In this document: positions 28,982 through 35,813 of the stretch, piece by piece | How the letters are laid out: each line of letters begins with the position of its first letter | Numbering within the stretch: the first letter of the stretch is position 1 | DNA from: a virus | DNA length: 35,991 nucleotides | Virus genome (UHGV): UHGV-0222783 | Reading direction: 5' to 3' (one strand) | The notes under the pieces: model-generated | The model's input: the letters and a program-made list of their open reading frames with translations, nothing else | Database searches by the model: none | Told to the model about the DNA's origin: nothing | Program-made: the position numbers and the translations under genes

Positions 28982-29332
28982 CTAATTTTTATTCTTTGAT
29001 CTCGTCCACAGGTAAAGAAGAGCAATGGCAAGACAGGAAACAGAGAATAGATAACCTACCTCATATGGTGCGCCAAAAAAATTAGCTATTGATACGGGCA
29101 AAAAAGCCGAAGCGATCAGAATTGAAAGGCAAAAAATAAGCCCAGTAACATAGTTTATTAAACTCTTAAATGAGAAACGTTTTGCTTGATTTACGGTCTC
29201 AGCGAGTGATCGCTTAACGATGGATAAAAGCAAATAGATGGCGACAGTAGCTAATGCCCCTTTCCACCAGTCTGGATATAGTTTTGCGACAATCAGCCCA
29301 AGGAAAACCATGATGACAGACTGAGCATTCAC
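28982..29332 (-). CDS. small polytopic inner-membrane protein (116 aa); candidate superinfection-exclusion protein by position
   Basis: GTG start at 29332 preceded by a perfect AAGGAGGT SD; about four hydrophobic helices. Sits where P22-like phages carry sieA-type exclusion genes. Confidence 0.5.
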   Translation of the reverse strand: MNAQSVIMVFLGLIVAKLYPDWWKGALATVAIYLLLSIVKRSLAETVNQAKRFSFKSLINYVTGLIFCLSILIASAFLPVSIANFFGAPYEVGYLFSVSCLAIALLYLWTRSKNKN

Positions 29333-29507
29333 ACCAACCTCCTTAGTTTTGCGCAGGATACCAGATGATGTATAGGAGTGGGAGTAAAGTTAGTCGGTGA
29401 TAGAACGGTGGTTGCATAATGATATCACGTGACGTAAACTTATTGCGCATAGCGTGTATTCAATGGATGCATAGCTATTGATAATCTCCGATAAGAAGGA
29501 GGTTTGT

Positions 29508-30074
29508 ATGAGCAATGAGACTAATGGGATTGATGAAATGTTTAGCTTGAACGCTGCCAAAGCTGGAGTCGCAATAGGTTTGCTATTACAGCAAGCTTCT
29601 GCGTTCAGTTGTGAGGTGGTTGTTACTGATAACGTTCAGCACGCTTACCATCAATCCTCATTCAGCAGTGAACGGGCTAATGATGAGCTTCATGAGGCGG
29701 TGTCTTCGATTAAAGAATTGTCTCGAATGCTGAAATACGCTTATCGTGTTCTTGCAAACGCTACCGATGAGAATGTAGACAATGTGTTGTCTATCATTGA
29801 ACCAGAAAAGTCTCGATTGATAGAGCATCAATTGAGAGGACTTGAAGGGGCAATGAAATCGGTATTCAAAGAAGCTTCTGCTGATTTTAAAGAGATCGCA
29901 AGAGATATCTATATCGTTGTTGCTGATGCCAGATCTGCCGTAACCAACCTGAATAGTCTTATTAAACAACGCTCATGTGTTCCGGTTGTTTTTGATAGTT
30001 CCGTAGATATGGCTGGTTTGCGTGCGCTTGCTGAGCACGGGACTCGTGTGTTTCACTCTGGTAACTTCCACTGA
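29508..30074 (+). CDS. hypothetical protein (188 aa), first gene of an accessory two-gene operon
   Basis: ATG 29508 after strong SD AAGGAGG. Predicted helical; no family recognised by eye. Confidence 0.5.
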   Translation: MSNETNGIDEMFSLNAAKAGVAIGLLLQQASAFSCEVVVTDNVQHAYHQSSFSSERANDELHEAVSSIKELSRMLKYAYRVLANATDENVDNVLSIIEPEKSRLIEHQLRGLEGAMKSVFKEASADFKEIARDIYIVVADARSAVTNLNSLIKQRSCVPVVFDSSVDMAGLRALAEHGTRVFHSGNFH

Positions 30075-30082
30075 GGTAAAAC

Positions 30083-30532
30083 ATGCAAGTAACCGTGGAA
30101 TATAATCAGGATAGTTTTGACTATTTTTTCTCCCCGGTTTTTGTTGAGTTTCCTGATTTAAAACAAACACTTGTAGATGATTTTATCATCTACAAGTCTA
30201 CGGGAACGTTGCCCAGCTATTTTGGCAGAGACACCTCTTATCATCGACCTCCTGATATTGAAGATGCAGGCCTTATGCACCTTCATTTAGCAATTGGTGA
30301 AAATAAATTTGAGCCAATAAAAAATGGCACAGATATCAGCACACCGCAAAAGTTGCAGTGGCATAAAACATCCAATACCGCTCTCGTTTATGCACAAAAT
30401 CTTTTTGATGAGAACAGGTATTCATTGATTGCTCTTTTTCATCCTGTAGCTCACATGTCTGCTAACAATCATAATAGAATGAGAGTGTTAGCAGGGTATG
30501 CGAGAGACTTTAGAAACACTATGTTTGACTAA
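30083..30532 (+). CDS. hypothetical protein (149 aa), second gene of the accessory operon
   Basis: ATG 30083, 8 nt after the upstream stop. His-rich motifs (HLHLA, FHPVAH). Followed by an intrinsic terminator. Confidence 0.5.
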   Translation: MQVTVEYNQDSFDYFFSPVFVEFPDLKQTLVDDFIIYKSTGTLPSYFGRDTSYHRPPDIEDAGLMHLHLAIGENKFEPIKNGTDISTPQKLQWHKTSNTALVYAQNLFDENRYSLIALFHPVAHMSANNHNRMRVLAGYARDFRNTMFD

Positions 30533-30533
30533 A

Positions 30534-30556
30534 CCCACCGTCAGGTGGGTTTTTTA
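30534..30556 (+). terminator. intrinsic terminator between convergent operons
   Basis: cccacc-gtca-ggtggg hairpin then tttttt, placed between the plus operon end (30532) and the minus ClpP-like gene end (30581). Confidence 0.6.
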
Positions 30557-30580: not shown

Positions 30581-31117
30581 TCAAACAACCCACCAGTTTG
30601 CCTGATTGGATGCCAGCCTTGCAGTTTTTATGGAATTAATTATGCCATGCTCAAGAGCCTTGTTAGCATCCAAAATGGTCGAGTCTGCTATCAGGGATGC
30701 CCACCTAATATGGGTTCCGATGTCGATATTGAACGTCTCAACGAAGCGATCAAGATCGTTATCGAGGCATTTCCCGTACTCTCTCAATCTGGCATGGTCG
30801 GCGGCTGGGGAGGCAAAGCACCATAATAGAGGATGTAACAGGAATCTTGATAATGGGTTTGCGAAACGTTCTGAGCCAGCCAGGAAAACGATATTAGCTA
30901 TGGATTCAACATTGCTTATGTTGTGAGTTCTAACGGTAACAGGGAGTGACTTAAGAAAGTTATACGCAGTAAAGCCAGCAGCAGTTTCCCCTCCCTGACT
31001 TGATATATGGATATTTAATTCAGTTGCGCCTTGAGATAATGCGGTGAGACAGTGGTTCTGAAGTTGCCCAACAGTGGCAGTGTTAACAGGGCATAAGAAA
31101 TGAATTGTGTGCAGCAT
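30581..31117 (-). CDS. ClpP-family serine peptidase homolog (178 aa)
   Basis: By-eye alignment to E. coli ClpP: [23 protein letters not shown] vs [51 protein letters not shown] vs [32 protein letters not shown]. The catalytic Ser and His positions appear conserved. ATG overlaps the Mnt-like stop (TAATG). Confidence 0.6.
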   Translation of the reverse strand: [178 protein letters not shown]

Positions 31118-31365
31118 TATTTTTCATCCTTAGCATACATGGTCTTTAGCGTCTCAAGTAGCGCCTCTTTGAATTTATCAGCTTCTTGCTGAGCAAATGA
31201 CTCAACTGACTTTGGCGACCTATCTTCATCAATCGCGGCTTGCAAAATCATGACGATCTCGGAGTTAACAGAGCGACCATTTTTTGATGCTCTGACAGCA
31301 AGAGCCTCGCGTAAAGATTCAGGGATTCTTACCGTAGTTGGAGAAATTGACACACCCTTTGCCAT
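31117..31365 (-). CDS. Mnt/Arc-type ribbon-helix-helix repressor
   Basis: MAKGVSISPTTVRIPESLREALAVRASKNGRSVNSEIVMIL... is an RHH motif (compare P22 Mnt ..REKLKFRAEANGRSMNSELLQIV). ATG at 31365. Confidence 0.7.
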   Translation of the reverse strand: MAKGVSISPTTVRIPESLREALAVRASKNGRSVNSEIVMILQAAIDEDRSPKSVESFAQQEADKFKEALLETLKTMYAKDEK

Positions 31366-31388
31366 ATAACACCTTTGGTATTCAATTT

Positions 31389-31441
31389 GATAGCAAAGTG
31401 TATGCAAAAAAATTTTGACTAGATATACTCACTTTGCTATC
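31389..31441. promoter_or_regulatory. divergent promoter/operator region with 12-bp perfect inverted repeat
   Basis: gatagcaaagtg (31389..31400) and its reverse complement cactttgctatc (31430..31441) bracket a TTGACT -35-like hexamer, between divergent RHH repressor genes. Confidence 0.5.
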
Positions 31442-31479
31442 TTTTGTATTCGAAAAGAGTTGTTTGCGTGGAGGGTAAC

Positions 31480-31632
31480 ATGGAGAAAGAAATAAGTAAG
31501 ATTTTGGTAAGGATGCCGCAGTCGTTAAAGGATGCTATCGGTAGCAGGGCAAAGGAAGAGTGCAGGTCGTTTAACTCAGAGGTTATCAAGCGCCTGATAG
31601 ACAGCCTGAAGAGAGAGGGGGTAACGGTGTGA
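31480..31632 (+). CDS. Arc-like ribbon-helix-helix repressor (50 aa)
   Basis: MEKEISKILVRMPQSLKDAIGSRAKEECRSFNSEVIKRLIDSLKREGVTV; RHH pattern (compare P22 Arc ..RWPREVLDLVRKVAEENGRSVNSEIYQRV). GGAGGG SD. Confidence 0.65.
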   Translation: MEKEISKILVRMPQSLKDAIGSRAKEECRSFNSEVIKRLIDSLKREGVTV

Positions 31633-31864
31633 TTCGCTTGGATGCAGTAGTCAAAGAGATTGCGATTACCATTTTAAGACCAAATTTTGTTCATGGCGAA
31701 TCATTTGGCACGAACGAAAAATTGAGAAGAGAAAGAGTATTCAGTGGCAAGCGCACGTTTTCAGAAGTGATGCTTGATGCGGCAAAGAAATCAAAACAGT
31801 GAAGCCCCAACTGCTGGAACAGTCAGGGCTTCGGTTGTCGGTAAATCCGTGGAGAAAAACCAAC

Positions 31865-32767
31865 ATGAATAGTATAGCAATTTTAGAAGCAGTGAACACC
31901 TCTTACGTGCCATTCAACGGTCAGCAAATTATCACCGCCATGGCTGCCGGAGTTGCATATGTTGCGATGAAGCCAATCGTTGAAAACCTCGGAATGAGCT
32001 GGTCAACGCAGCAAACAAAACTCATGAAGCAGATTAGCAAATTCAACTGTGTTCATATGAACATGGTTGCCGCTGATGGTAAGCTTCGTAAGCTACTCTG
32101 CCTTCCTTTGAAGAAGTTAAATGGATGGCTGTTCAGCATCAACCCTGAGAAAGTTCGTGCTGACATCCGCGATAAACTGATTCAGTACCAGGAAGAATGC
32201 TTTACTGTGCTGCATGACTACTGGACAAAGGGAGAGGCAGCAAATGCACGGAAGAAAACATCTGTTGATGACAGGACTCCGCTTCGTGATGCTGTAAATA
32301 TGCTAGTCAGCAAAAAGCATCTAATGTACCCAGAAGCTTATGCAATGATTCATCAGCGTTTCAATGTGGAAAGTATTGAAGAGCTTGATGCATCTCAGAT
32401 ACCACAAGCAGTAGAGTACATCCACAGGGTAGTGCTTGAAGGTGAGTTCATCGGCAAACAAGAGAAGAAAACCAACGAGCTTTCTGCAAAAGAAGCAAAC
32501 AGCCTTGTATGGCTATGGGATTATGCCAACCGCTCACAGGCATTATTCCGCGAACTGTATCCGGCGCTAAAACAAATTCAATCGAACTATTCCGGCAGAT
32601 GTCATGACTGCGGTTATGAGTTCTCCCGTATTATCGATATGGCGAGAGACGTTTTAATCAATCACACACGAGATGTTGATATCAATGAGCCAGACGGACC
32701 AACGAATCTTTCCGCATGGATGAGACTTAAGAATAAAGAATTACCTCCTTCAGTACATAATTACTGA
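31865..32767 (+). CDS. ant: antirepressor Ant (P22 Ant-like)
   Basis: [43 protein letters not shown]... resembles the P22 Ant N-terminal domain as recalled; downstream of Arc-like as in P22 immI. Confidence 0.7.
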
Positions 32768-32867: not shown

Positions 32868-35813
32868 ATGACAGACATTACAGCCAATGTGATTGTATCG
32901 ATGCCTTCGCAACTCTTCACTATGGCGCGTTCTTTTAAAGCCGTAGCCAATGGCAAAATTTATATCGGTAAAATTGACACTGATCCTGTAAATACAGAAA
33001 ACCAGATTCAGGTCTATGTGGAGAATGAAGACGGTTCTCACGTTCCTGTTTCGCAACCAATAATCATTAACGCTGCTGGATATCCGGTATATAACGGACA
33101 GATTGCCAAATTCGTTACCGTGCAAGGCCATTCTATGGCTGTTTATGATGCGTATGGTGCGCAGCAGTTCTATTTTCCTAATGTGCTGAAGTATGATCCT
33201 GATCAGTTACGGCAGCAATTAGAAGACACAGATGGAGCGAATAAATACCCAAAACTTCAGATAGCAAGATGGAGAGACAGTTATGATGTAAGAGGTTGGG
33301 GGGCTATTGGTGATGGTGTTCATGATGATACATCAGCTCTATCAGAATTACTTTCTGTTGCAACAGGTGGTGAAAAGATAGATGGGCGAGGGCTTACTTT
33401 TAAAGTATCAACTCTTCCAGATGTCAGTCGATTTAAAAATGCTCGTTTTTTATTTGAGAGAATACCGGGTCAGCCTCTTTTTTATGCTTCTGAAGATTTT
33501 ATCCAGGGAGAGTTATTTAAAATTACAGATACACCGTGGTACAACGCCTGGACGCAGGATAAAACGTTTGTATATGACAATGTCATCTATGCGCCTTTTA
33601 TGGCTGGAGACCGCCATGGTGTAAATAACCTCCATGTTGCATGGGTTCGCTCAGGAGATGACGGGAAGACCTGGACAACGCCGGAATGGCTTACAGATTT
33701 ACATGAAAACTATCCCACAGTTAACTATCACTGCATGAGTATGGGGGTTGTCAGAAATCGCCTTTTTGCTGTAATTGAGACGCGGACCGTGAGCGGAAAT
33801 AAACTGCAGGTTGCAGAGTTGTGGGATCGCCCAATGAGTCGCAGCCTTCGCGTTTATGGTGGTATAACGAAAGCAGCAAATCAGCAAGTCGCTTATATTC
33901 GCATTACTGATCACGGATTATTTGCTGGTGATTTTGTCAACTTCTCAAACTCTGGTGTTACAGGTGTTACCGGGAATATGACGGTGACTACTGTTATTGA
34001 TAAAAATACTTTTACAGTTACGACGCAAAATACCCAGGATGTGGATCAGAATAACGAGGGTAGATACTGGAGTTTTGGTACATCATTTCACTCGTCACCA
34101 TGGAGAAAAACCAGTCTTGGAACTATTCCTTCTTTTGTTGACGGAAGCACTCCTGTTACTGAGATTCACAGTTTTGCGACGATTAGCGATAACAGTTTTG
34201 CTGTTGGCTACCATAATGGTGATATTGGTCCACGCGAGCTTGGGATACTCTATTTCTCTGATGCTTTCGGTTCTCCTGGTAGCTTTGTTCGCAGACGCAT
34301 ACCTGCAGAATATGAGGCGAATGCATCTGAGCCATGTGTAAAATATTATGATGGCATTCTGTATCTGACGACCAGGGGGACATTAAGTACTCAACCCGGT
34401 AGTTCATTGCACAGAAGCTCTGATTTAGGTACATCATGGAATTCTCTTCGCTTCCCAAATAATGTTCATCACTCAAACCTTCCTTTTGCCAAAGTTGGCG
34501 ATGAGCTGATTATTTTTGGCAGTGAGCGCGCATTTGGTGAGTGGGAAGGAGGAGAACCTGATAACCGTTATGCAGGAAATTATCCAAGAACATTTATGAC
34601 CAGAGTTAACGTCAATGAGTGGAGTCTGGATAATGTAGAGTGGGTTAATGTTACTGATCAGATTTATCAGGGCGGAATAGTTAACTCTGCGGTTGGTGTT
34701 GGTTCAGTTTGTATCAAAGACAACTGGCTGTACTACATTTTCGGTGGGGAAGACTTTCTAAACCCATGGAGCATAGGGGATAACAACAGAAAATATCCTT
34801 ATGTTCACGATGGTCACCCGGCTGATTTGTATTGTTTCAGGGTGAAAATTAAACAGGAAGAATTTGTTTCAAGGGATTTTGTCTACGGAGCCACTCCTAA
34901 CAGAACGCTTCCTACTTTTATGTCGACGTCAGGCGTGAGGACGGTTCCTGTACCCGTTGATTTCACAGATGATGTTGCCGTCCAGTCACTGACTGTCCAT
35001 GCAGGTACATCAGGACAAGTTCGCGCGGAAGTCAAACTTGAGGGTAATTACGCCATTATTGCGAAGAAAGTACCGTCTGATGATGTTACCGCTCAGAGAT
35101 TAATCGTTAGCGGAGGTGAAACAACGTCTTCAGCAGATGGTGCAATGATAACGTTGCATGGTTCCGGAAGCAGTACTCCACGTCGCGCGGTATATAACGC
35201 ACTCGAACATCTTTTTGAGAACGGAGATGTTAAACCTTATCTTGATAATGTAAATGCTCTTGGTGGTCCGGGAAACAGGTTCTCGACAGTTTATCTTGGC
35301 TCCAATCCTGTGGTTACCAGTGACGGAACATTAAAGACAGAGCCGGTCTCTCCTGACGAAGCATTGCTGGATGCCTGGGGTGACGTCAGGTATATCGCTT
35401 ATAAATGGCTGAACGCTGTCGCTATAAAGGGGGAAGAAGGGGCGAGGATACATCATGGTGTAATCGCGCAGCAACTTCGTGATGTTCTTATTTCTCACGG
35501 ACTCATGGAAGAAGAAAGCACAACATGCCGCTATGCCTTTCTTTGCTATGACGATTATCCCGCAGTATATGATGACGTCATTACTGGCCAAAGGGAAATG
35601 CCGCTGACTGATAATGACGGGAGCATCATTGTTGATGAGGATGATAATCCAGTGATGGTAATGGAAGACATCATTGAGCGCGTTGAAATAACGCCAGCAG
35701 GATCTAGATGGGGGGTCAGACCTGATCTCTTATTCTATATCGAGGCAGCATGGCAGCGCAGAGAAATAGAAAGAATAAAAGCTAGGTTAGACTTAATAGA
35801 AGGGAAGCACTAA
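32868..35813 (+). CDS. tailspike: P22-type N-terminal head-binding domain fused to an endosialidase with C-terminal intramolecular chaperone domain
   Basis: 981 aa. N-terminus [42 protein letters not shown] is the P22-like particle-binding domain. Sialidase Asp-box motifs SGDDGKTW and SSDLGTSW. C-terminal region resembles the self-cleaving chaperone domain of K1-phage endosialidases. Confidence 0.8.

Follow-up and report, generated by a model that had tools for sequence, protein, structure and literature searches.

Why should a P22-like prophage carry a ClpP-type gene directly behind the repressor gene of its immI region? The question is raised by the UHGV virus genome UHGV-0222783, of which one strand of 35,991 nucleotides was analysed, and this whole stretch is called the window here. 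On the minus strand of the window, an mnt homologue (31117..31365, ATG at 31365; 82 aa) was found to be the first cistron of a leftward operon, followed by the presence of a ClpP-like gene (30581..31117; 178 aa) on the same strand. The ClpP-like gene is probably prophage cargo (a 'moron') for a short Ser-His peptidase with the ClpP fold, truncated at the N-terminus and belonging to the PpClpP1 family, and its product would be an accessory barrel expressed in the lysogen and not a part of the lysogeny switch.

The 178-aa protein was found to match Pfam CLP_protease (PF00574) at 44.4 bits (cut-off 20.2) with E=2.2e-11, as had been expected in the first-pass annotation, where the protein was aligned by eye to the ClpP core. 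The best solved relative was PDB 9UXT (phmmer E=1.6e-35 over residues 3-175, 38-40% identity), which is the 'ClpP1' of Pseudomonas plecoglossicida (PpClpP1) and the shortest characterised ClpP (PLoS Pathog 2026; PMC12900304). An AlphaFold2 model built from 49 homologues was found to be confident (pLDDT 93.9, pTM 0.90) and to contain the ClpP alpha/beta fold with the handle helix. In Foldseek, the model was matched to 9uxt_A with a TM-score of 0.93 and a root-mean-square deviation of 1.7, and to canonical ClpPs with TM-scores of 0.81-0.84 (E. coli ClpP about 0.83), and the proposed ClpP fold was borne out. The protein was also found to match several PHROG families of head-maturation proteases, the best being PHROG 94 (7.3e-21), and the NCBIfam model Clp_rel_HeadMat (NF045542) was scored at 49.3 bits against a cut-off of 120; the NCBIfam cut-off for true ClpP was also far from reached. 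Among the PADLOC v2 defence models, no family was matched by the protein at E<=0.1. A dN/dS of 0.075 was obtained against the 80%-identical Pectobacterium orthologue at a dS near saturation, and the gene is under purifying selection. In an exhaustive profile search, 250 clusters (50% identity) were found at E<=1e-30, nearly all of them 180-200 aa in length.

The residues were mapped in an alignment of 39 diverse family sequences (identities as low as 26%) with E. coli ClpP, the reference sequence of which was checked and was identical to 1TYF. The Ser72 and His95 of the window protein were found to be equivalent to Ser97 and His122 of E. coli ClpP, in agreement with the Ser and His neighbourhoods recognised by eye, followed by the equivalence of Gly43 to the oxyanion Gly68, and all three residues were invariant in 39/39 sampled sequences. 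The position of the catalytic Asp171 was occupied by Ser146, and in the sample it contained Gly (17), Ala (7), Ser (6), Pro (2) or Asp (2); the Ser-His-Asp triad that had been put forward for checking was therefore not found, since the family mostly contains Gly, Ala, Ser or Pro at this site. A canonical triad by way of the neighbouring Asp145 was rejected, as this position was variable in the family (K/S/T/R/E). As read from the alignment, the catalytic apparatus is a Ser-His dyad and not a Ser-His-Asp triad. No counterpart was found for the N-terminal ~27 residues of the mature E. coli protein, which comprise the axial loop and helix A. At the positions which we take to form the pocket for the IGF/LGF loop of ClpX and ClpA, the replacements Y60N, Y62H, F82S, I90H, L114N and L189K were present. 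With the pocket mostly polar and the gate absent, the elements that make ClpP ATP-dependent are missing, and since the docking pocket is largely polar, more is claimed by 'ATP-dependent Clp protease proteolytic subunit', the name in RefSeq, than is known.

The properties of PpClpP1 give a guide to what such a protein may do. PpClpP1 is without the N-terminal helix and the axial loop, contains a Ser73-His96-Pro triad, and was found by cryo-EM and analytical ultracentrifugation to be a homotetradecamer with a pore of 42.7 Å (PMC12900304). Its peptidase activity was about 13-fold below that of the housekeeping paralogue and was abolished by S73A or H96A, whereas about 60% was kept when the Pro was changed to Ala or to Asp; ClpX was not pulled down, a heterotetradecamer with the housekeeping ClpP2 was more active, and the protein was overexpressed in and purified from E. 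coli and was non-toxic (PMC12900304). By extension from PpClpP1 and from the sequence features common to both proteins, the phage protein would form a barrel of the ClpP type, open at its axial pore, and would have weak Ser-His peptidase activity. It would not itself dock ClpX or ClpA, and it may mix with the housekeeping ClpP of the host and alter what that machine degrades.

The gene upstream of the ClpP-like gene was found to encode a protein with an N-terminal ribbon-helix-helix (RHH) domain followed by a helical C-terminal tail. The 82-aa protein matched the Pfam Arc RHH domain (E=9.5e-11) and was 36.5% identical to P22 Mnt, with residues 11-79 aligned, so that its earlier designation as a Mnt-like repressor was upheld; a FitA-like antitoxin RHH profile also scored on it (2.1e-08). 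A translational coupling signal was read in the sequence at 31115..31131 on the minus strand, where an AAGGA Shine-Dalgarno sequence (31131-31127), located 9 nt 5′ of the ClpP-like ATG and within the final Lys-Asp codons of mnt, is followed by the stop/start overlap TAATG that had already been noticed. In this overlap, base 31117 is common to the mnt stop TAA (31119-31117) and the ClpP-like ATG (31117-31115). The 1-nt TAATG overlap was found in 44 viral loci by an automated count, and also in the loci L001-L005 and L007-L008, and the 45th viral locus (L140) was found by hand reading to contain a 4-nt ATGA overlap between mnt and the ClpP-like gene. The P22-like prophages of Pectobacterium contained the same coupled pair, in which the gene upstream of the ClpP-like gene matched PF11423 Repressor_Mnt.

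The window region was matched at 100% identity by a P22-like prophage that adjoins dsdC in E. coli ATCC 11775; upstream of the region, this prophage contains genes for the portal, a P22-type coat and ejection proteins and a scaffold-sized gene. The region is placed between the gene-16 homologue and the tailspike gene, as immI is in P22, and the Mnt, Arc and Ant homologues were found to be divergently arranged between these two genes. This position corresponds to the 'ant moron' or immI position of P22-like phages, of which an APEC-1/CUS-3-type six-gene version is included in the published comparison (Villafane et al. 2008, PMC2629481). In the locus L006, immI was present and the ClpP-like gene was absent. 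The claim that such a gene is not a standard immI component was supported. The Mnt tail ...KTMY(A/G)KD(E/N)K was conserved in 4/4 examined Mnt proteins preceding a ClpP-like gene, whereas the Mnt of L006, the sole Mnt examined from a locus without this gene, was found to contain a different tail end. The DNA matches reach into the 3′ end of mnt by 40 or 81 bp and, because they stop there and the Mnt tails differ, the cassette junction is placed within mnt, with the Shine-Dalgarno sequence included in the cassette. The ClpP-like gene is an optional add-on to immI, with a cassette boundary inside the 3′ end of mnt.

In complete E. coli genomes, a copy at >=95% identity was found in 128/5426, followed by the presence of relatives 60-80% identical (DNA) in 48 more, and almost all of the close E. 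coli copies listed were annotated beside an 'Arc family' gene. The upstream RHH genes were looked for with a Mnt-profile search, which detects Arc too. A Mnt-like gene overlapping the ClpP-like start was found in 45/45 viral loci at >=80% protein identity, whereas no upstream Mnt-like RHH gene was found in 35 viral loci at <=75% identity or in 80 genome loci of a species-representative collection. The suggestion that the gene be surveyed next to mnt was thus answered in two ways, as the pairing held throughout the 45 close viral loci and failed in the 115 more distant ones. No antirepressor gene was found beside the distant relatives in the loci inspected.

The distant relatives were found to stand alone, on the opposite strand to their neighbours, in places typical of cargo. 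The lambdoid prophages of Klebsiella and E. coli contained the relative between the Rz/LysC lysis genes and the terminase, and other relatives were located at the tail-fibre end or, in Proteus, beside the N gene. Outside the mnt-coupled sub-lineage, lambdoid and myovirus-like prophages carry the gene as a moron of its own, in antisense orientation, and in Pseudomonas it is chromosomal. In some lambdoid prophages, a 182-aa open reading frame (ORF) on the same strand was found to precede the ClpP-like gene immediately (L097 4462-5010, L170 3374-3922), and it may be a partner gene in that sub-lineage. The lambda-like siphophage PhiR12_1 (Escherichia, PV340549.1; L002 5048-7060) was found to contain the full mnt-clpP/arc/ant set between the tail-tip genes L and K and, because the cassette sits in this lambda-like phage, the immI module and its cargo travel together between unrelated types of virion. 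The family was found in only six sequenced phage genomes, and in one of these (MN340231, phiv205-1) the gene is annotated with the name 'head maturation protease'.

The genome loci retrieved were nearly all from Pseudomonas, and 50 of them contained a divergent KGG-repeat stress protein gene, the only recurrent neighbour, located some 270-640 nt 5′ of the ClpP1-like gene (L024-L095, mostly Pseudomonas). This pairing suggests a stress-linked regulation of PpClpP1-type genes, which is not discussed in the structural paper. In the Pseudomonas-branch loci, no upstream RHH gene was found, and the ORFs read in a few loci included none of phage type.

Between the divergent operons of the window, a control region (31366..31443) was found to contain a perfect 12-nt inverted repeat at 31389-31400 and 31430-31441 (GATAGCAAAGTG / CACTTTGCTATC, 29 nt between the arms), followed by the presence of a sigma-70-like rightward promoter at 31415-31443. 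The 12-nt repeat, with one arm on either side of the divergent mnt / arc-ant promoters, is a candidate operator pair, and the operator and promoter role of the control region is predicted by likeness to P22 Pmnt/Pant. A second, imperfect repeat was observed to overlap the mnt start. Downstream of the ClpP-like gene, a G+C-rich hairpin with a 9-bp stem (30531..30552) was found between the convergent yafO-like and ClpP-like genes, with folding energies of -17.6 and -18.8 kcal/mol. The hairpin is a U-tailed terminator on the plus strand, shared with the convergent yafO-like unit, and the same 42 bp are labelled 'terminator' in phage Emek. A terminator scan gave no result and the 9-bp hairpin was seen by direct folding; located 28 nt past the ClpP-like stop, it probably ends the leftward mnt/ClpP-like transcript as a weaker stop.

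On the plus strand, the control region is followed by an arc-like RHH gene (31444..31632; Pfam Arc E=9.6e-12; RefSeq 'Arc family DNA-binding protein'), the equivalent of which is started in RefSeq at an ATG corresponding to 31480, and by the antirepressor gene ant (31799..32767; P22_AR_N 5e-45, P22_AR_C 2.7e-28; phrog_245), whose RefSeq start corresponds to about 31865. A Cys-free 57-aa ORF (31629..31802) was found between the two genes. At the same place in L006 (5492-5674; E. coli 14EC017) and in L125, a 60-aa ORF with a ClpX C4-type zinc finger (PF06689, 7.6e-11) was observed, to which the 57-aa ORF of the window is unrelated. The peptide of this ant operon, resembling a free ClpX zinc-binding domain, could disturb substrate or adaptor binding by ClpX. 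A link of the ClpP-like gene to the zinc-finger ORF was considered and rejected, as the two were found together in only 1/45 viral-contig immI loci. The tailspike gene (32868..35813, plus strand) encodes 981 aa, and related tailspike fragments in another strain are named 'endosialidase beta-propeller' in RefSeq; these annotations together with the dsdC position suggest a CUS-3-like, K1-capsule-specific P22-like prophage. An ISEc12 element was observed between ant and the tailspike gene of E. coli ATCC 11775, and it is not present in the window.

On the other side of the ClpP-like gene, a two-gene cassette was found on the plus strand (29478..30074 and 30083..30532) with a gap of 9 nt between the genes. 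The first gene encodes a 198-aa protein that belongs to phrog_8416 and has no Pfam match; the product of the second is toxin-like and of the YafO family (PF13957, 3.4e-22). The 198-aa protein was not recognisable as a YafN antitoxin, and the pair may be a non-canonical toxin-antitoxin or abortive-infection pair. In the locus L005 (4081-4948; E. coli Res13-Lact-PER04-33), a Panacea-domain gene and a partner were observed to replace the YafO-like cassette; this PanTA-like toxin-antitoxin arrangement shows that the slot beside the ClpP-like gene swaps toxin-antitoxin or defence-type cargo. A predicted membrane protein of 116 aa without a family match is encoded directly after the gene-16 homologue (28982..29332, minus strand), in the slot where P22 carries the exclusion gene sieA.

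P22 immI works without a ClpP-like gene. Because most relatives are without Mnt, Arc and Ant, and because immI works without the gene, the coupling to mnt is read as a route to lysogen-phase expression and not as membership in the switch. One lineage of the gene would have been captured as the second mnt cistron of a P22-like (CUS-3/APEC-1-type) prophage and, by P22 biology, the ClpP-like protein would be made in the lysogen together with Mnt, the repressor that keeps ant silent. As for the function of the cargo, it may modulate the Clp proteolysis or the stress fitness of the host, for which the biochemistry of PpClpP1 and the pairing with a stress gene in Pseudomonas speak. A more far-reaching proposal is that a gate-less and partner-less barrel, spread by enterobacterial temperate phages and wired to the maintenance repressor in the P22-like ones, reprogrammes ClpXP and ClpAP by way of the host ClpP or serves as an open-pore peptidase on incoming phage proteins; this proposal is held to be rather improbable. 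Several points weigh against a cargo barrel made in the lysogen. No strong leftward promoter was found by a consensus scan, and expression from Pmnt in the lysogen is presumed from P22 biology. For the oligomer and the mixing with E. coli ClpP, the extrapolation is from a chromosomal homologue of only 38-40% identity, and the literature searched yields no experiment on any phage-borne member of the family. The YafO-like cassette or Panacea-domain gene next door would fit defence as well as housekeeping modulation.

The last of these points belongs to the explanation that survives best beside the cargo reading, an effector of anti-phage defence or superinfection exclusion. An ungated barrel expressed in the lysogen, alone or with the host ClpP, would degrade incoming phage proteins or kill the infected cell, and its targets might be ejected or unfolded proteins, scaffold or capsid precursors; both the role and these targets are doubtful and yet deserve to be kept in mind. 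The classic cargo sites antisense to lytic operons are in keeping with such a role, as is a place in the hypervariable 'ant moron', the home of sieA in P22 (PMC2629481), where the YafO-like cassette was found here and the Panacea-domain gene elsewhere. The best PHROG match consists of ClpP-type head maturation proteases, and a recognition of foreign head proteins is conceivable. However, the PADLOC search was without a match, Clp is unmentioned in the DefensePredictor paper, and no sensor or partner gene was found to be conserved beside the ClpP-like gene. The chromosomal branch of Pseudomonas with its stress gene in 50 loci points to general proteostasis, and PpClpP1 is non-toxic and weakly active.

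Much less support is left for a dedicated regulator of the immI switch, a protease that would turn over Ant, Arc, Mnt or a C2-type repressor and so tune maintenance or induction. The degradation of Ant or of a repressor had been raised in the first-pass annotation, and it was weakened by the finding that beyond one sub-lineage there was no upstream Mnt-like RHH gene and, in the inspected loci, no antirepressor. The translational coupling to mnt in 45/45 loci of the sub-lineage, counted as co-transcribed, is what such a regulator would call for, and the mnt-clpP/arc/ant set moves whole into a lambdoid tail region; the ClpX-type zinc-finger ORF between arc and ant hints at a Clp-linked control in some sister loci. 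Against this, the distant relatives are all without the RHH gene and their inspected flanks without Ant, the immI of L006 is without the ClpP-like gene and P22's own immI, as textbook knowledge has it, does without one. The zinc-finger ORF shares its locus with the ClpP-like gene only in the single viral-contig case given above, and the protein contains neither a substrate-recognition domain nor an AAA+ docking pocket. On the distribution of the gene, a switch regulator is considered unlikely.

A toxin-antitoxin-like pair, in which the RHH protein neutralises or represses a toxic ungated protease, is very unlikely. Type II toxin-antitoxin operons have a similar layout, in which a small RHH gene overlaps the enzyme gene that follows it, and the score of the FitA-like antitoxin profile goes in the same direction. 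However, the RHH protein is homologous to Mnt from end to end and already has a divergent partner in arc-ant, and PpClpP1 could be overexpressed in E. coli and purified. The pair was ruled out by the mostly solitary occurrence of the peptidase gene, with no upstream Mnt- or Arc-like RHH gene in the 115 more distant loci.

A structural head-maturation protease, for which the phiv205-1 annotation (GenBank MN340231) and the matches to PHROG 94 and other head-protease families speak, is the least credible reading and was ruled out by position, strand and the NCBIfam Clp_rel_HeadMat score below its cut-off, as the gene runs against the late operon and lies outside the portal-scaffold-coat block, among whose annotated genes there is no protease, the phage head proteases are just 25-32% identical to the ClpP-like protein, and P22-type head maturation is established to be free of proteolysis; the concern that a misplaced prohead protease had been read as a ClpP was settled by the same strand and position.

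The protein type is already known from the structure and enzymology of 2026, and RefSeq already names the gene as a Clp subunit. In the literature searched, nothing was found on a mainly prophage-borne spread in enterobacteria, on a lineage wired to mnt or on misleading automatic names, and the literature on 9UXT, P22-like or mnt-linked ClpP, prophage ClpP defence, CUS-3 Clp, the RefSeq accession and PhiR12 was found not to treat the phage gene. The family of PpClpP1 is widely spread by phages, which was not considered in the structural paper, and the link to PpClpP1 predicts an open-pore tetradecamer with Ser-His activity that mixes with the host ClpP. The gene is present in about 2-3% of complete E. 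coli genomes, including K1 and avian pathogenic E. coli (APEC) strains and the type strain, and prophage cargo expressed in lysogens often proves to be a fitness, virulence or immunity factor. If the protein does remodel the host ClpP, this would be a new route by which a prophage manipulates host proteolysis. The more far-reaching proposal above would amount to a phage-encoded hijacking or weaponising of the host Clp machinery, and in P22-like phages the barrel would be present exactly while the prophage is silent.

When compared with known systems, the window protein was found to share with the phage head maturation proteases (PHROG 94, NF045542) a phage-borne ClpP fold without axial gating loops, and to differ from them as sub-cut-off, antisense cargo that is neither fused nor adjacent to scaffold or capsid genes, in a P22-type host phage that needs no head protease. 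The canonical E. coli ClpP (S14; 1TYF/1YG6) has the fold, the Ser-His pair, the oxyanion Gly and the handle helix in common with it, whereas the identity is 20% and the window protein lacks the catalytic Asp and the ~27 N-terminal residues of the gate and contains a largely polar IGF/LGF pocket. In P22 immI nothing is translationally coupled to mnt, whereas the position between gene 16 and the tailspike, the Mnt, Arc and Ant homologues with divergent promoters and the likeness to the APEC-1/CUS-3-type six-gene moron are shared. PpClpP1 belongs to a chromosomal Pseudomonas branch, and the gene of the window is carried by a prophage as cargo and is coupled to mnt; the tetradecamer, the weak activity and the co-assembly with ClpP2 were seen for PpClpP1 only. 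The two proteins are homologous over the full length, are nearly equal in size (183 aa and 178 aa) and carry the same N-terminal truncation, followed by the presence of an invariant Ser and His, a non-acidic third residue (Pro there and Ser here) and a docking pocket that is not conserved.

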